In this document: piece after piece, positions 45,516-52,883 of the stretch | Layout: each line of letters begins with the position of its first letter | How positions within the stretch are numbered: the first letter of the stretch is position 1 | IMG/VR virus record: IMGVR_UViG_3300044681_000369 | Coordinates: 64,001-128,000 of that record | DNA: 64,000 bases | From: a virus | Reading direction: 5' to 3' (one strand) | The notes under the pieces: model-generated | What the model was told of the DNA's origin: nothing | The model's input: the letters and a program-made list of their open reading frames with translations, nothing else | Databases searched by the model: none | Made by a program: the position numbers and the translations under genes

Positions 45516-46010
45516 TTATTTTCTAATTAGTGAGTTATAGTCTGTTAAGAACTCAGACAAATACCTCTTGTCTAACAATTTTATTTCGCTCTTTTTGTCG
45601 TTCAACATCTCTTCATATTGAAAATTTTGAATTGCAGTTTTATAGCCATCCGCATAGTCGGCATCTACAATTAATCCGTCGTCTGTCTCATAATGATGAA
45701 CATCGTAAATGTTTTCTATTCCATTATATTTTTTAATGCAGTATTTTACCAAATCTGATTGAGATTTTGGCCATTCTTCACGAACATCTACAATATTATT
45801 TGTAATTAATATTACCCAGTGATAATAAGGATTTCCATAATATCTGCTTGCCACAATTTCTGGAGTCCAACCACTAGGAACAGTAAATGACTCAAGAATG
45901 GTATAATCATCTATACCAGCCTTGGCTGCAACACGCCGAAATATATCGGTTACGGTTACAAACTCGCCGTTTATTGTTGCTAACGTTTTAGGAAAATTTT
46001 TGAATAACAT
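45516..46010 (-). CDS. gp53: Baseplate wedge protein (LysM-like)
   Basis: PEIVASRYYGNPYYHWVILITNNI, VHHYE, YEEMLNDKK. Confidence 0.92.
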   Translation of the reverse strand: MLFKNFPKTLATINGEFVTVTDIFRRVAAKAGIDDYTILESFTVPSGWTPEIVASRYYGNPYYHWVILITNNIVDVREEWPKSQSDLVKYCIKKYNGIENIYDVHHYETDDGLIVDADYADGYKTAIQNFQYEEMLNDKKSEIKLLDKRYLSEFLTDYNSLIRK

Positions 46011-47167
46011 TAGAATCCAGCCTCAACTCTCTGAGATGTTAATGTCTCTAGTTCAGTAAACTTCAGTTTGATTGTACATTCTGAAGGATATCCCTCGGAG
46101 CCTTGAAAATATACTAGACCTTCACCGCCATACTGTATGTCTATGGAGTTTAATGCACAGTTTGAAATCTTTCTTAGCTTTTTATTTTCTTTACCATTGT
46201 AAAAAAACATAATTAAAAATTCTGACGGATATACCAAAAATAGTCCATGATCAGAAGACGTAGGATGCATGTGCTGAATAAAAGTTTTTATTATTCCTGG
46301 TTCCGTGCCATCTCCAAATATTGCCCTAGCCTCAGCTAAATTTTTTGGCATAAATCTATATTCAAAGTCAAATGTTCTGAAGTCCATATTTTTAAACAAT
46401 TGCTCTTTATATGGATTCTCTACTTTTTTGGTGCCAGCTTCCATTGCCGCCTTCATTTTAGGACCACCTAAAGACGCTCCAACTTTTCTTAGCGCATATT
46501 GACCGACATCGCCAGCTTCACTGAAGAAATCCATAACTCCAGATATATTTGCTTGACCTGTACCGACTGCGCCCATAATAGCACCGATATCGGCTGTATC
46601 CCAGTTTGATGAGTAACGCTGACTTATAGAGTTGTGAATTCCAAGACTAACAGATTTTGCTCCAAACATTAGCTTGTTATCTTCATTTACTAAAAGTGCT
46701 AGTCCTGCACCGGCAGCACCACCGGCAGCCGCAGTACCTACAACTTGACCTGTGGCTCTCGCAAGTCCAGTCAGTGCGCCTGTAATTTTACCACCAATTC
46801 CTTTACCACCAGAATTTGTTAAAATGTCTTTTAAACCTGAAGCACCTATGCTTCCTATTGCGGCAGTTGCCGCTTGCTCTACTCCACCGGCAGCGAGAGC
46901 GGCTGTCGTATTTGCTGGATCCATTCTCATTTGACCGCTTTGATCAAATTCTCTGTTTGCGCCAGAGAAAGCAGAGAATGATCCTCCGGTTGCAGTAATA
47001 GCACCCTTACGGACAAGAGGATAAAAAGTTACCCAAGAAGGAAACTCTTCTGTAGACAATTCTTCAGGATATCTGTAAGTTGACGAGGAATTTTGACTGA
47101 GAATGTCATCCTCAGTCACTCGGTTTGTGTCCCTACTAAATCTTGATGTATTTTCTGTATCTGACAT
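46010..47167 (-). CDS. gp48: Baseplate tail-tube cap
   Basis: NPYKEQLFKNMDFRTFDFEYRFMPKN..EA, YPSEF, LKFTELE. Confidence 0.9.
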   Translation of the reverse strand: MSDTENTSRFSRDTNRVTEDDILSQNSSSTYRYPEELSTEEFPSWVTFYPLVRKGAITATGGSFSAFSGANREFDQSGQMRMDPANTTAALAAGGVEQAATAAIGSIGASGLKDILTNSGGKGIGGKITGALTGLARATGQVVGTAAAGGAAGAGLALLVNEDNKLMFGAKSVSLGIHNSISQRYSSNWDTADIGAIMGAVGTGQANISGVMDFFSEAGDVGQYALRKVGASLGGPKMKAAMEAGTKKVENPYKEQLFKNMDFRTFDFEYRFMPKNLAEARAIFGDGTEPGIIKTFIQHMHPTSSDHGLFLVYPSEFLIMFFYNGKENKKLRKISNCALNSIDIQYGGEGLVYFQGSEGYPSECTIKLKFTELETLTSQRVEAGF

Positions 47168-47170
47168 GAG

Positions 47171-47218
47171 AATAAATAACCTATTGAGGGTATGCTTGTG
47201 TGCTTCGGACTATTTATA
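47171..47218. promoter_or_regulatory. Divergent late promoters: AATAAATA (+, 47171-47178) for gp4 and TATAAATA (-, 47211-47218) for gp48
   Basis: Both motifs lie in the short divergent gap. Confidence 0.65.
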
Positions 47219-47673
47219 TGACATATGCTAACGATACTTTAAGGGGTTTATATAAAGTTATAAATCCAAAGAAGTATGTCGGAAATCCAGATAATGTTAT
47301 ATTTCGATCTAGCTGGGAACTGAAGTTCATGAAATGGTGTGACTCAAACCCGAATATCATACAGTGGGGTTCTGAGGAGTTATCAATACCATACGTGTCG
47401 CCAATCGACAAGAAAATACACAGATATTTTGTAGACTTCTACATTAGTGTTAAAGACGGATCTGGAAATATCAGCAAATATTTAGTTGAGATTAAGCCAT
47501 ATCGTTTTACTCTCCCACCAAAACAGCCAAAACGACAATCAAAACGATTCCTCCAAGAAGTTGCAACCTATGCGGTAAATCAGGCAAAATGGAAATTTGC
47601 TGATGAATTTTGTAAAGACAATGGTTGGAAATTTCTTGTATTAACCGAAAAAGAACTTGGAATAAACGCATAA
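47218..47673 (+). CDS. gp4: Head completion protein (TnsA-like nuclease)
   Basis: NPKKY.G, RSSWELKFMKWCD, HRYFVDF, VEIKP, NQAKW. Likely start at 47218. Confidence 0.93.
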   Translation: MTYANDTLRGLYKVINPKKYVGNPDNVIFRSSWELKFMKWCDSNPNIIQWGSEELSIPYVSPIDKKIHRYFVDFYISVKDGSGNISKYLVEIKPYRFTLPPKQPKRQSKRFLQEVATYAVNQAKWKFADEFCKDNGWKFLVLTEKELGINA

Positions 47674-47697: not shown

Positions 47698-48282
47698 ATG
47701 GCTACTAAGAACAACAACATTTTTTCAAATCTTCATGCCAAGGCTGGTGACCAGGACAGGTCTATCCAATGGTACATGAAAAATGTGAAAGCATTGGTTG
47801 GCAATAATGTAACCTCAAATGCCGTTATGAAATCGGAAATTGGAAGACTAGAAACCAAGATCGAAATTGGATCGATGTACCTGTATTTTTATGATCCAAA
47901 AACAAAAGACAAGTTGCCGTTTTACGACACCTTTCCTTTAGTGTTTCCCTTTAAGCCAGCACCAGGCGGTTTCTATGGCATCAATCTACATTACTTACCA
48001 TATATGCTGAGAGCCAAAGTTTTAGGTGAGCTATTGAACTATACGGACCAAAATCTGACAGAGACAAGTAAGATAAAAATGTCATATGGATTTTTACAAG
48101 GTCTGGCAAGCACAAACGAACTTATGCCGTGTGTTAAGAGATACTTAACAACTCACGTTCGATCAAGTTTTATGAAAATTAATCCTAAAGATTGGAAAGC
48201 AACAATATTTTTACCTGTAGAAGGCTTTATCGGAGCATCTAAAGATGTGGTATTCAGAAATACCAGGAGCAAAATTAAATGA
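47698..48282 (+). CDS. gp2: DNA end protector protein
   Basis: YDPKTKDKLPFYDTFPL, GINLHYLP, W..TIFLP; late motif CATAAATA at 47669-47676. Confidence 0.92.
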   Translation: MATKNNNIFSNLHAKAGDQDRSIQWYMKNVKALVGNNVTSNAVMKSEIGRLETKIEIGSMYLYFYDPKTKDKLPFYDTFPLVFPFKPAPGGFYGINLHYLPYMLRAKVLGELLNYTDQNLTETSKIKMSYGFLQGLASTNELMPCVKRYLTTHVRSSFMKINPKDWKATIFLPVEGFIGASKDVVFRNTRSKIK

Positions 48283-48824
48283 CCTACGGGTATAACATCG
48301 AAAATTTTCTTGCGGCAGTAAGACCAAAAGATTTGGCACGTTCGCATAGATATCAATTTCGCTTTACTCCTCCCAGAAGTCTTTCTGGTGTAACAGATAG
48401 AGGAAGCGATTTTGCAGAAATGTCGTTATACACAGAAGATGCGACTATTCCAGGTACACTTGTTGGAACATCACCACTAAGGTTGAACAATCAAAACTAT
48501 CAAAGAGCCACTGGCATTGATTATATGGGTGACTCGATCACAGTAACCTTTTTAGTGGAAGATGACTGGAGAGTAAAAGACCTATTTACATCTTGGATGG
48601 AAAAAATTGTTGATCCAATATCAAGAGAAGTTTCTTATCCAGCTGACTATTATTCTGAAATTTATATAGATGCATTAGATCAGTCAAATGAGCCAAAAGC
48701 TGGTTGGAAACTTTGGGACGCATTTCCAAGATCGGTTGCTCCGGCGGCTTTGTCTTACGGCAATACCCAAGTAGTTAGATTACCTGTGACGTTTACATAT
48801 CGAAAGTGGACTAAAGAGTATTAA
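48279..48824 (+). CDS. Tail-tube-fold baseplate protein (gp54-like tube initiator)
   Basis: LARSHRY, F..WMEKI, AFPRSV, LPVTFTYRKW. Confidence 0.75.
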   Translation: MTYGYNIENFLAAVRPKDLARSHRYQFRFTPPRSLSGVTDRGSDFAEMSLYTEDATIPGTLVGTSPLRLNNQNYQRATGIDYMGDSITVTFLVEDDWRVKDLFTSWMEKIVDPISREVSYPADYYSEIYIDALDQSNEPKAGWKLWDAFPRSVAPAALSYGNTQVVRLPVTFTYRKWTKEY

Positions 48825-48841
48825 TAGAGGATAAAAATACC

Positions 48842-49531
48842 ATGGCGCTACCAACATTGAATACACCAAAATTTAAAGTGAAAGTATATTCTGAAGATAA
48901 CAAAGAATATCAACTAAGACCGTTTTTGGTCAAAGAAGCAAAGTTACTCTTAATTGCACAGCAATCCGAGGATCCAAAGGAAATGATCCATGCTATGCAA
49001 GATTGTGTGACTAGATGCTCAGACGGTAAGCTAGATGGCAAGAAATTGCCATTTTTTGACCTACAACATGTCTTTATCCAGTTGAGGATTCAGTCTGTTG
49101 GTGCGATTACAGAATTTAAACTGGTTTGCGGAGAATGTAATACACATACTCCATCAAAACTGGATTTGAATCAGATAGAACTCCAGATTGATCCTAACAA
49201 TAACAAAAAGATTATGCTAACTCCAGAAGTTGGAGTAATGATGAAGTATCCAAGCGCAGAAATTTTGGCAGACCTAGAAAAGCCAGCTTTTGATTTGGTT
49301 GTAGATTGCATCGATAAAATTTTCGATCAAAACGAAGTCTATGATGCCAAAGAGGAAGGTAGAGAAGAAGTTGTTAAATTTGTTGAAGGATTAACAAACG
49401 ACCAATTTGAACTCTTTTCGGTCTTCTTTAAAACTGTGCCAAAAATACAGAAAGTCATAAACTACAAGTGCAAGACATGTGAAAAGGAAAATGTTGTAGT
49501 TATAGATGGCGTACAAAATTTTTTCGGATAA
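48842..49531 (+). CDS. gp26: Baseplate hub assembly protein (tail assembly chaperone-like)
   Basis: MALPTL, RPFLVKE, LRIQSVG, two CxxC motifs, C-terminal G.QNFF. Confidence 0.9.
   Translation: MALPTLNTPKFKVKVYSEDNKEYQLRPFLVKEAKLLLIAQQSEDPKEMIHAMQDCVTRCSDGKLDGKKLPFFDLQHVFIQLRIQSVGAITEFKLVCGECNTHTPSKLDLNQIELQIDPNNNKKIMLTPEVGVMMKYPSAEILADLEKPAFDLVVDCIDKIFDQNEVYDAKEEGREEVVKFVEGLTNDQFELFSVFFKTVPKIQKVINYKCKTCEKENVVVIDGVQNFFG
49519..49525 (+). other. Candidate -1 ribosomal frameshift site T TTT TTC
   Basis: In the last codons of gp26 (AAT TTT TTC GGA TAA). The -1 frame is open and continuous with the gp51-like ORF. Confidence 0.7.
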
Positions 49532-49551
49532 CCCTTTCTCATGACAATTTG

Positions 49552-49707
49552 ATGAACTATTATAAAACGAATTTTATATTAATGCAAGAACACAAATATA
49601 GTTTATCGGAACTTGAAGATATGATGCCATGGGAAAGGGAAGTTTACATAGGATTATTGATGCAACATTTGAAAAAACGAGCAGAAGCCAAGAAAAAGAA
49701 AAAATAG
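49552..49707 (+). CDS. gp51: gp51-like baseplate hub assembly catalyst (51 aa; probably the frameshift extension of gp26)
   Basis: Below the ORF-track cutoff; reads MNYYKTNFILMQEHKYSLSELEDMMPWEREVYIGLL...; no SD before its ATG. Confidence 0.85.
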   Translation: MNYYKTNFILMQEHKYSLSELEDMMPWEREVYIGLLMQHLKKRAEAKKKKK

Positions 49708-49716
49708 GTAAACTAA

Positions 49717-52281
49717 ATGGCAAACGATGTCAAATCAAATTTGGGTAAACTAATCAAAAAGGTAAATCCTTTTGGCGAAAAGCAAGACCCACAAAGACAG
49801 GTACAAAGCCTGGAGGAAGTCAGGTTTGCTGCCAACGTTGGCTCTGTTGGTTTGACAGATGAGAAATCTGGTCTTAAAATTGCACAAGATGTTTCTCTTT
49901 CCATCAAGGAAGTTGGTTCAGACTTCATAAAGGAAATGAGCGAAGAAAACCAGCTCCTCGTAAAGGATATGGTCAAGCAAATTGGTGGTCTATTGACTGC
50001 TAATGCCGAAAAACACAAGAAAACTTTAGATGAAGTAATTAGACTTTCAAAGCAAGTTGCCGAAACTGGAAAAGCCAGTGGCGATAAGAAAATGCAGAAA
50101 GTTGGAGAAGATACTTTAAAGTCTGCAATTGCTGAACGTGAAAAAAACATGGGAATGAATTACCATGGAGCAGATGATAATAAGGGCAATAGACTAGCAA
50201 GAAAGTTATTTGGAAACGATGTTGATATGTCGACCAAATTGGTCGAAGAGGATGTTGAAGAAACATACGTTGATCCATACACTGGAGAAAAATCAAAGCG
50301 TAAAAAACTTGATGCTGAAGGCAACGTAGTAAAAAGAGAAAAGCGTGAGGCTAAAGCGTGGCAAGATAAGGCGCTAGAAAAAAGAAACGTATTTAAAAAA
50401 GGTTTTAATTACGTTGAACGCTTCGATGAGATCGATGACAAAGGATATGCCGTCAAACTTGACGAAAAAGGAAATGAACTTAGATACGGCGATGAGGGTT
50501 GGAAAGAAGCAAGCCAAGTTAAGACCATCGACAAGTCGTTAACAAAAGATGAACTACGAGAGCATGTAAAAGAAGTTAATGCTACAACTGCTAGGGGGTT
50601 TGCAGAACGAACAGCAAAGGTTGCTTGGGGTGGAGCAAAAAGCATGGGCTCCGCTTTCCTAGAAGGACTCAAGACGCCAATTATTCCTGATGTTTTAGAG
50701 TGGGATAGACAGCCTGACGATTTGACCGATGCGCAAAAACGTGCAATAGATGAAGCAGAGCAGGCTCAAGGAAAAACTCCAAGAGAACAAGGTACAGCGG
50801 CTGTTGGTAAACTCTCTGAAGTATTGTCTGCTGAGACAGCCACCGGGGAATCTCTAAGTTCTGGTGCAGAAGAAGCGGCAGGACTAGCACAAGATCCAAG
50901 AATAAAACTTCAAGAAGAAGCAAACGCAAAATTAGATGAGGTTGTAAATCAACTAAAACTTCTAAACGAAAAAGGCGGAACTGGTGGTAACGGGAATGAA
51001 GAACAACAGCCTGCGCAACCACAAGAAGAAGGTGGTGGAATTCTTGACAGCATCATTGACGTAGGAAGCAATTTTATAGGAAAAAGAGCTGGCACATCTT
51101 TGTTGGGAGGCATGGGCGGAACATTAGTTGCCGGCGCGGCAGGCATCGGCATGGCTGGTTATGCCGCATATAATGCATACAACGATTACAATGAAGCAGA
51201 TCAACTTGTAGAGTCTGGTGGAATAAACGAAAGAACAGGAATAGCCTATACGCAAGCCGACGAGGACGCTAGAAAGTCTGAAGCAGTTGGAAGAGGTGTA
51301 GGTGGCGCATCAGGTGCATTAGCAGGCGCGGCTGCTGGTGCTATGATTGGTTCTGCTGTACCTATTGTTGGCACAGCAATAGGTGGGCTTGTTGGTGCTG
51401 GTATAGGCTATTTTGGTGGTGATGCCATCGGCAACACAATAGGCGACTGGATGTCAACCGACACAGAAGAGCAAGCAATGTCTGATGCGGAAGACAGTGG
51501 ATTATACAATTCAAACTGGCTAGGCAATTCAGAAATTGATAAGGAAAAGCTGGCACAAACAACAGATGTTGCCCAATTAAATGCAATTCTAAATGATGAT
51601 GATCTTAGCGATGAAGACAAAGCGGCAGTCCAAGAAAGACTTAACCAGCTTCAAAATAGTCCATCTCCAGTTTCGACAACAACTGGCACGGGTGCATCTA
51701 CTGGCGCTGCCCTTGAGAGTGCATCTACTGGCGCCGCCGGGGCGTCTACTGGCACTGCCCCTGAGAGTGCTTCTAGCGAAAATACTTCTACCGAATCTGG
51801 AAGAAGTTCGCTTGCTACTGGTACCAAATATGCTGCCGCTATGGCTCTCGGTGGACCCCTGGCTGCTGGTGGTATGGCACTATGGAATAACAAAGACGCT
51901 GTAGGTGAAACTCTAGGGAATGTAGCAAGTGGTATAGGAAGTGTTGCTAGTGGTGCATTCAGCGGCATTTCAAATTTTGCTAAAGAACATCCAATGTTAG
52001 CAAGTGTTGTGCCAGGCTTAGGCGCGGCTGGTGCAATAGGCGGTGCCTGGGATTGGTTAACTGGCGATGGAGAAAATCCAGATGGCGATATTCTTGAATC
52101 TGGCTCTGATGACGCTAGAGACGAAATGAGTGTTAACGTGCCTCCACCAACAGTTATTCAGCAAGGCGGAAAAGGAGAAGGTGCACCAGCTGGTCCACAA
52201 ATGCCAATGACTCCAATGAGAGTAAGAAATGATGAGTCAAGTTGGATGAGATTTGCAGATAAACGGACTATGGCAATATGA
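49717..52281 (+). CDS. Tape-measure / baseplate hub protein (gp29-like)
   Basis: Helical charged N-terminal half, Gly/Ala-zipper hydrophobic segments; position right after gp26/gp51. Confidence 0.65.
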   Translation: MANDVKSNLGKLIKKVNPFGEKQDPQRQVQSLEEVRFAANVGSVGLTDEKSGLKIAQDVSLSIKEVGSDFIKEMSEENQLLVKDMVKQIGGLLTANAEKHKKTLDEVIRLSKQVAETGKASGDKKMQKVGEDTLKSAIAEREKNMGMNYHGADDNKGNRLARKLFGNDVDMSTKLVEEDVEETYVDPYTGEKSKRKKLDAEGNVVKREKREAKAWQDKALEKRNVFKKGFNYVERFDEIDDKGYAVKLDEKGNELRYGDEGWKEASQVKTIDKSLTKDELREHVKEVNATTARGFAERTAKVAWGGAKSMGSAFLEGLKTPIIPDVLEWDRQPDDLTDAQKRAIDEAEQAQGKTPREQGTAAVGKLSEVLSAETATGESLSSGAEEAAGLAQDPRIKLQEEANAKLDEVVNQLKLLNEKGGTGGNGNEEQQPAQPQEEGGGILDSIIDVGSNFIGKRAGTSLLGGMGGTLVAGAAGIGMAGYAAYNAYNDYNEADQLVESGGINERTGIAYTQADEDARKSEAVGRGVGGASGALAGAAAGAMIGSAVPIVGTAIGGLVGAGIGYFGGDAIGNTIGDWMSTDTEEQAMSDAEDSGLYNSNWLGNSEIDKEKLAQTTDVAQLNAILNDDDLSDEDKAAVQERLNQLQNSPSPVSTTTGTGASTGAALESASTGAAGASTGTAPESASSENTSTESGRSSLATGTKYAAAMALGGPLAAGGMALWNNKDAVGETLGNVASGIGSVASGAFSGISNFAKEHPMLASVVPGLGAAGAIGGAWDWLTGDGENPDGDILESGSDDARDEMSVNVPPPTVIQQGGKGEGAPAGPQMPMTPMRVRNDESSWMRFADKRTMAI

Positions 52282-52883
52282 TAACTTTTAAAGAATTTTT
52301 ATCTGAATCAAAAGAACTGGCTGGGTTGACCATCTGGGACATTGACGAAACTCTATTCAGAACATCTGCTAGGGTCAATATCATGAAAGATGGTAAGGTT
52401 GTCAAGCGTTTGGGTAACAAACAATATAATACCTATCACTTGCAACCAGGGGAATCTTTTGACTTTAGTGAATTCAAGAATGCACGACATTTCAGAGACA
52501 CTAGCGAACCTATCGTTCGAGCAATTCGCAAGCTAATTGCAATACACAAAAATGTCAAAGCCAAAGGCAGTAAAATGATTATTGTTACTGCTAGATCAGA
52601 CTTTGATGATCGGGATGTTTTCTTAGACACGTTTCGTAGCCAAGGTATCGATATTGATGATATCTATGTTCATAGGGCTGGTAATCTAGGCACAATGCCA
52701 TCAGCACAAGCAAAAAGAATTGTTATAAAACAATATCTTGATACTGGTAAATATGGTAGAGCAAGACTTTTTGATGATGCTATTTCCAATTTAAATATGT
52801 TTAAAATGCTCAAACATGATTATCCAGATATTTCATTTGAGGCTTATCTAGCACATGAAGATGGAAGAATGACACGCATGTAA
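52278..52883 (+). CDS. HAD-superfamily phosphatase (PNK-phosphatase-like)
   Basis: Motif I WDIDETLF, motif II VTARS, Lys in AQAK, motif IV LFDD...N. Confidence 0.75.
   Translation: MITFKEFLSESKELAGLTIWDIDETLFRTSARVNIMKDGKVVKRLGNKQYNTYHLQPGESFDFSEFKNARHFRDTSEPIVRAIRKLIAIHKNVKAKGSKMIIVTARSDFDDRDVFLDTFRSQGIDIDDIYVHRAGNLGTMPSAQAKRIVIKQYLDTGKYGRARLFDDAISNLNMFKMLKHDYPDISFEAYLAHEDGRMTRM

Follow-up and report, generated by a model that had tools for sequence, protein, structure and literature searches.

A predicted -1 frameshift joins gp26- and gp51-like chaperone sequences upstream of a tape-measure candidate in an uncultured T4-related phage

We analyzed a 64,000-nucleotide (nt) stretch of viral DNA (IMG/VR record IMGVR_UViG_3300044681_000369, positions 64,001 to 128,000), hereafter the window, which belongs to a metagenome-derived virus record of 140,970 bp that CheckV rates as 86% complete. 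Judged from the sequence, positions 48842-49707 of the window very probably hold a tail assembly chaperone (TAC) gene of a T4-related phage that is decoded in two ways, as a short form (TAC-N, the gp26 equivalent) and as a long form (TAC-NC, the gp51 equivalent). With high probability, recoding at a run of T near the end of the gp26-like reading frame yields both chaperones, and a -1 slip of the ribosome is the likeliest route.

The gp26-like open reading frame (48842-49531 on the plus strand, including the TAA stop at 49529-49531) ends CAA AAT TTT TTC GGA TAA. The slippery heptamer T_TTT_TTC (49519-49525, plus strand) lies in this sequence in the X_XXY_YYZ phase, with the zero-frame stop 3 nt downstream. 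From C49525 the -1 frame reads R-I-T-L-S-H-D-N-L-M-N-Y-Y-K-T-N-F... and stays open for 60 codons up to a TAG at 49705-49707, forming a predicted C-terminal extension (49525-49707, plus strand). A 51-amino acid (aa) reading frame within it (49552-49707, plus strand; ATG at 49552, with a TTG at 49549 in the same frame) is the short 'gp51' of gene callers. A first-pass annotation of the DNA, made from the letters alone, had pointed to the heptamer, its phase and the open -1 frame leading into the gp51-like frame, and had predicted products of 229 and ~288 aa. Both points hold, as the predicted short form has 229 aa and the predicted long form 228 + 60 = 288 aa. A second formal heptamer, A_AAT_TTT (49516-49522), overlaps the first and would be expected to give the same product.

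The gp26-like frame matches Pfam family PF12322 (T4_baseplate) over residues 9-228 (E is 8.3e-53) and phrog_150 (E is 3.7e-55). The extension matches phrog_634, 'baseplate hub assembly catalyst' (E is 1e-21), and also positions 243-281 of phrog_150, i.e. the last 40 positions of the gp26 profile. The whole 140,970-bp record contains only one copy of PF12322, so that recoding would be required for this phage to make both forms from its single gene. We judge that the 51-aa frame at ATG 49552 is probably not an independent gene and represents the C-terminal part of the 288-aa chaperone form.

In the mechanism we propose, most ribosomes would read 48842-49531 and terminate, producing the 229-aa TAC-N. 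On a minority of ribosomes, the two tRNA-Phe positioned on UUU and UUC of U_UUU_UUC would slip back by one base in tandem and re-pair on UUU UUU, and reading would resume at CGG AUA ACC... and continue for 60 further codons to the UAG at 49705-49707. The resulting 288-aa TAC-NC would have the junction ...VQNFF|RITLSH..., with a predicted junction peptide ending ...VIDGVQNFFR, then ITLSHDNLMNYYK.

We collected 80 IMG/VR loci (31-58% identity to the query) using two N-terminal peptide patterns, RPF.VKE and FD.E, with a 5-sequence alignment as the seed; a scan of viral contigs with the single gp26 protein had returned no match. The patterns derive from the N terminus only, and the ascertainment of these loci is thus independent of the slip site. 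All 80 relatives contain an in-frame T_TTT_TT[C/T/A] located 0, 3, 9 or 24 nt upstream of the stop, and the -1 extension is 55-68 aa long in every locus that reaches the extension stop (76/80; the other 4 run off their contigs). Alignment of gp26/gp51 junctions, which the first-pass annotation had proposed, hence shows that T4-like phages retain a slippery heptamer followed by an open -1 frame, and the recurrence of this sequence pattern in 80 of 80 independently ascertained relatives is far above chance. The same heptamer and open -1 frame are present in the phages S-CAM4, S-RSM4, P-SSM2, Stenotrophomonas Ps15, Acidovorax ACP17, and Aeromonas PX29 and Aeh1; Sinorhizobium phiM12 shares the arrangement with a T_TTT_TTT heptamer. 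In a set of eight diverse cultured T4-like phages, seven have it. When the region is compared with cultured phages by blastn, the matches start at most one or two bases away from the slippery run. S-CAM4 and S-RSM4 read AAT TTT TTC GGA TAG followed by an open -1 frame (R-I-A-L-F-H-N-T-L-E-G-Y-Y-K-T-N-F...), with third-position synonymous differences upstream of the annotated g51 ATG.

Quantitative tests were done on 62 non-redundant loci. The codon preceding the Phe-Phe pair ends in T in 62/62 loci and the first Phe codon is TTT in 62/62, compared with a background T-ending usage of 0.66-0.81 in the same genes (log10 P is ∼-8.8 for the preceding codon and ∼-9.8 for the first Phe codon; these values ignore the relatedness of the loci, and third positions are near saturation). 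The run comprises 6 T in 39 loci (and in this window), 7 in 10, 8 in 12, and 9 in 1 locus, and is always found in the X_XXY_YYZ phase. A zero-frame stop is located 0 or 3 nt past the run in 57 of the 62 loci. By analogy with T4, this proximity may just mark the end of the domain, because T4 gp26 ends three residues past its own Phe-Phe. At four loci (L040, region 1900-1940, L048, L051, and L083) the zero-frame stop lies 24 nt past TTTTTTC, and the short form gains a ...ASPTT(T/A) tail.

T4 has two separate genes, 26 and 51, which are transcribed divergently and encode proteins of 208 and 249 aa, respectively. Residues 1-201 of T4 gp51 match PF12322 (E is 4e-52), and gp51 matches phrog_150 over its full length; T4 gp26 ends at profile position 235. 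A blastp comparison aligns T4 gp51 residues 201-244 with the window extension, starting at the first post-slip residue (E is 2e-5). Using hhalign, the set of gp26 sequences from one-gene phages aligns with T4-type gp51 up to column 200 (probability is 98%, E is 2e-13), and the extension set aligns with columns 203-249 (probability is 95%, E is 3e-8). T4 gp51 thus corresponds to the predicted frameshift product encoded in a single frame, and its two parts meet exactly where the slip is predicted. The first-pass annotation had stated that T4 gp51 resembles gp26 plus a C-terminal extension and had proposed that T4 may encode as two genes what this phage makes from one; the alignments bear out the former, and the separate T4 genes, with no heptamer in gene 26, agree with the latter.

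The two-gene sample consisted of T4, Acinetobacter AM101, GEC-3S, avDM3, and asfd_1h (the last is unannotated and its gene 51 is not confirmed). In 5/5 of these lineages gene 26 ends without a T6 run (for example, GAG TTC TTT GAG..., GAA TTT GTC, or AGT TTC CTT), and the one-gene Straboviridae Aeh1 and PX29 retain GAT TTT TTC. A tblastn search with T4 gp26 at E 1e-3 does not reach gp51 and hence is of no use for a census of two-gene phages. The contrast between one-gene phages that keep the heptamer and two-gene phages that have lost it illustrates how recoding can be replaced by gene duplication, a principle that is already published.

Both forms would act jointly as non-virion chaperones that hold the neighboring tape-measure protein during hub and tube initiation. 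We propose this role because of the homology with T4 gp26/gp51 and the analogy with lambda gpG/gpGT, and we infer the binding partners of both forms from such analogy. Table 2 of Leiman et al. 2010 (PMC3004832) classes T4 gp26 and gp51 among the hub assembly chaperones, and according to this source T4 gp51 is required yet absent from the particle. An AlphaFold2 model of the window gp26 has a mean predicted local distance difference test score of 94.5. When residues 1-95 were compared with 48,161 chains using VIA-align, rank 1 was 3fgx (Z is 7.5), rank 2 the HK97 tail assembly chaperone 2ob9 (Z is 6.8, root mean square deviation is 4.2 with 85 aligned residues), and rank 3 YqbN 3klu (Z is 6.3), all below the tool's caution level of 8; ORF12 from the lactococcal phage p2 was found further down. 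The comparison of models is suggestive of a TAC fold in the gp26-like N-terminal domain, at middling Z values. A Foldseek search of the gp26 model against the PDB gave no match (best E is 0.57), and a complex prediction for the 60-aa extension with the 181-aa tube-like protein, done without control runs, scored 0.00.

Several observations weigh against a chaperone gene recoded by the ribosome. The structural Z values are only middling, and a profile search of PDB sequences together with lenient Pfam scans of 59 family members returned no link to other TAC families, only zinc-ribbon noise. The 60 nt past the heptamer fold weakly in the window (-3.8 kcal/mol, z is +0.6), RNAalifold finds no consensus downstream structure for the 62 loci, and a 6-bp helix named by hand (alignment columns 34-39 with 53-58) pairs in 51% of the cells and is lineage-specific. 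No obvious stimulator of the shift is identified at this locus or across its relatives. The U6 run could in principle support transcriptional slippage, which would give the same protein. Finally, Vibrio phage D503 is a relative that has no canonical heptamer. D503 (OZ195883.1, region 2190-2440) is the sole sampled one-gene relative of this kind; its gp26 ends AAC TCA CTT TTC AAG TAA, and its -1 frame is open from ∼8 codons upstream into an extension-like reading frame (...SLMPWH...). Slippage in the P site alone on T_TTC, separate initiation at ATG GTG GAG ATG, or some different mechanism could operate there.

We searched the window and the 62 loci for the conserved stem-loop or pseudoknot 5-9 nt past the heptamer that, along with an upstream Shine-Dalgarno sequence, characterizes dnaX-type, structure-stimulated -1 programmed frameshifting and found none. 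A downstream stem does occur in some cyanophages, namely in P-SSM2 (z is -3.3), in S-CAM4, and in a group sharing GCCTCT...AGAGGC with compensatory changes. In loci L040, L048, L051, and L083 this 6-bp GC-rich stem begins ∼7 nt past the heptamer, and compensatory changes are seen in L053 and L067. It is possible, if rather unlikely, that the site departs from the classical structure-stimulated type, the shift being driven by the adjacent stop (slow termination and P-site slippage) or by RNA-polymerase stuttering on U6-U9. The absence of a conserved downstream structure, taken with a stop 0 or 3 nt past the U-run in 57/62 loci, makes a stop-driven shift conceivable. If either variant were true, the T4-like TAC genes would offer a large natural series, calibrated by phylogeny, in which a minimal recoding signal varies, and the two-gene lineages would serve as its inherent negative controls.

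Transcriptional slippage considered by itself is improbable. RNA polymerase would add one U on the T6 run, and some mRNAs would then encode the 288-aa protein in one frame, with no slip of the ribosome. The conserved element is indeed a homopolymer, with T-runs of 7-9 in 23/62 loci, and the missing conserved downstream RNA structure fits this scenario as well. Bacterial RNA polymerases need about 8-9 or more A/T for efficient slippage. That the run has only six T in most loci, the window included, is a weak argument against it, and the constant X_XXY_YYZ phase is another. Among the 24 loci with TTT or TTA as the second codon, the preceding codon ends in T in 24/24, where ∼0.7-0.8 per locus would be expected. 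This preceding T matters for P-site re-pairing and not for the T6 run, yet it is kept, although this too is a weak argument. We favor slippage of the ribosome.

The codon-position pattern of the extension bears on whether it is translated from the slip site or starts on its own as a second, ordinary gene. In extension codons 0-18, pairwise nucleotide differences are 0.435, 0.314, and 0.594 at codon positions 1, 2, and 3, respectively. The conserved residues of the extension are Leu-3, His-5, Leu-8, Asn-15, and Phe-16, and the first widely conserved Met is codon 19. Leu-3, His-5, and Leu-8 lie upstream of ATG 49552, where the Met itself is not conserved (Glu, Val, Ser, or Ala in relatives). The codon-position pattern and the conserved residues argue that the stretch running from the slip site up to this Met codon 19 is translated in the -1 frame; the open frame upstream of the annotated ATG, noted in the first-pass annotation, is hence conserved as protein. 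ATG 49552 has no Shine-Dalgarno sequence (the anti-Shine-Dalgarno duplex is +0.7 kcal/mol, compared with -5.8 for the gp26 start), as the first-pass annotation had stated. In relatives, the position of the first in-frame ATG varies between codons 1 and 19, and 4/55 loci have no such ATG within their first 30 codons. A Shine-Dalgarno sequence of -5 kcal/mol or better precedes none of the first extension ATGs, versus 85% of the gp26 starts. Given the lack of a Shine-Dalgarno sequence, the shifting first ATG, and the conserved upstream residues, independent initiation cannot explain the conserved N-terminal part of the extension.

We thus regard it as very unlikely that two ordinary genes are present, with gp26 ending at 49531 and a separate 51-aa gp51 starting at ATG 49552 or TTG 49549. 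The in-frame ATG at 49552 would permit such an arrangement, and most GenBank annotations of relatives imply it, with short 'gp51' coding sequences in S-RSM4, P-SSM2, phiM12, and PX29. Besides the poor start and the protein-like conservation ahead of it, with its third-position excess of change, tblastn matches in 507 phage records begin, in nearly all of the 60 rows sampled, at residue 1 or 2 of the extension, and they overlap the gp26 coding sequence as annotated. Two separate genes would also leave unexplained why synonymous positions of the heptamer are invariant and why two-gene lineages have lost it.

At the slip site, contigs assembled from other sequencing runs show no indels. A 1.6-kb contig among these, obtained in a different study, differs from the window by five substitutions and has the T6 run and the immediate stop intact. 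The one substitution that falls within the extension (49569 G>A, a natural single-nucleotide polymorphism) leaves the -1-frame protein unchanged. The idea that one 288-aa gene was split, either through a mistake of sequencing or assembly in the homopolymer or through a recent frameshift mutation, is effectively refuted: homopolymer runs are prone to error and the record is a metagenome-derived virus contig, but the same T6 run and stop occur without indels in contigs of a different study, and the pattern recurs in 80/80 relatives as well as in many finished genomes of cultured phages. DNA near-identical to 49300-49800 (0-5 substitutions in 501 nt) is present in freshwater- and marine-labeled metagenome runs from other studies, which indicates that this phage, or strains very close to it, can be found in samples of either label.

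A tblastn search with the extension finds 507 phage records that encode it, and the statements on annotation made here rest on a sample of 60 rows. Within this sample gp51 either has its annotated start at an internal ATG or lacks an annotation, and no joined coding sequence is present at any of the 13 annotated loci inspected, in line with the suspicion of the first-pass annotation that the short 'gp51' of non-coliphage T4-like phages may be systematically mis-annotated. For the window, the corrected annotation would assign the 51-aa 'gp51' to the 288-aa long form. GenBank names for the gp26/gp51 family are inconsistent and include hub subunit, hub assembly catalyst, assembly chaperone, and hypothetical. 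For Acinetobacter phage AM101 (NC_049511.1), both gp26 and gp51 appear as 'tape measure protein assembly chaperone' in the notes of the depositors, and the RefSeq product names stay 'baseplate hub'.

The novelty of the arrangement had been overrated. In the passage of the PRFect paper (PMC10885494) that cites them, Vladimirov, Gautam and Davidson (Virology 2022;566:9-15) are credited with the finding that some T4-like phages have one short and one long fused TAC gene and do not use frameshifting. In a 2025 paper (PMC12846349), this work is the reference given for poly-T -1 frameshift signals in T4-like TAC-N genes. As far as these citing passages go, the identity of gp26/gp51 as a chaperone pair, the poly-T slip in one-gene T4-like phages, and the two-gene solution of T4 are already published and attributed to Vladimirov et al. 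2022. With the principle in print, the present locus is a solid further example, in an uncultured phage that has not itself been described.

The gene order around the locus is a tube-like gene, the TAC gene (48842-49707), and a tape-measure candidate, so that two overlapping reading frames lie between tube and tape measure. The tail-tube-like gene (gp19/gp54 fold; 48279-48824, plus strand) matches phrog_45 'tail tube' (E is 5e-33) and, weakly, Pfam Phage_T4_gp19. It is located directly upstream of the TAC gene, in a position like that of lambda V, and is a neighbor kept in most relatives. The first-pass annotation had placed the gp26/gp51 pair directly upstream of a tape-measure candidate, and family searches support this: the gene at 49717-52281 (plus strand) starts 9 nt past the extension stop and encodes a putative gp29 analogue of 854 aa, which matches phrog_794 'tail length tape measure protein' (E is 6e-15) and further tape measure protein PHROGs and contains a glycine-zipper segment. 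Directly 3' of it, with a 4-nt overlap, a 201-aa HAD-type phosphatase or polynucleotide-kinase-like gene (52278-52883) matches phrog_415 (E is 1e-12) and, weakly, Pfam Acid_phosphat_B; such a gene is unusual within a tail module.

Further upstream, a gp48-like gene (46010-47167, minus strand) matches phrog_230 (tail tube cap). The match is confined to the C-terminal 200 residues of its product, and the N-terminal ∼180 residues are Gly/Ala/Thr-rich, of low complexity, and without a family match. It is followed by a gp4 head-completion homologue (47200-47673; phrog_218, E is 2e-61) and by gp2 (47698-48282). A further match of the gp4 homologue is to the Pfam Tn7 TnsA-like endonuclease N-terminal domain (E is 2e-22), which suggests a nuclease-type fold.

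A -1 frameshift is reportedly conserved in the tail assembly genes of long-tailed phages, including lambda gpG/gpGT, and is said to have been described by Levin et al. in 1993 and by Xu, Hendrix and Duda in 2004, cited here via PMC12859696. The locus in the window resembles the lambda V-G/T-H arrangement in its order of tube gene, two overlapping reading frames, and tape measure. It also has an X_XXY_YYZ heptamer a few nt before the upstream stop, and its predicted long form adds a C-terminal domain to the short form. Unlike lambda gpG, the window protein is ∼2 times as long and has an added domain with CxxC pairs; the heptamer is U_UUU_UUC here and G_GGA_AAG in lambda, and its sequence shows no detectable similarity to those TAC families. 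Among established TACs, the best structural matches of the N-terminal domain, at middling Z values, are HK97 2ob9 and YqbN 3klu. The T7 gene 10A/10B -1 frameshift is named as a comparable poly-T signal in the part of PMC12846349 that treats it. It shares with our locus a U-rich slippery site near the zero-frame stop and a minor product that is extended at its C terminus; the T7 product, however, is a capsid protein rather than a chaperone and is not homologous to this gene. With T4-like TAC-N genes the locus shares the poly-T slip signal at the TAC-N end, as described in the passage of PMC12846349 on these genes. With T4 gp26/gp51 it shares the same domain (PF12322), the same C-terminal extension, the same join position, and a gene beside the tape measure. 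It differs in that T4 and at least four other Straboviridae lineages use separate, divergently transcribed genes without a slippery run, whereas this phage has one.

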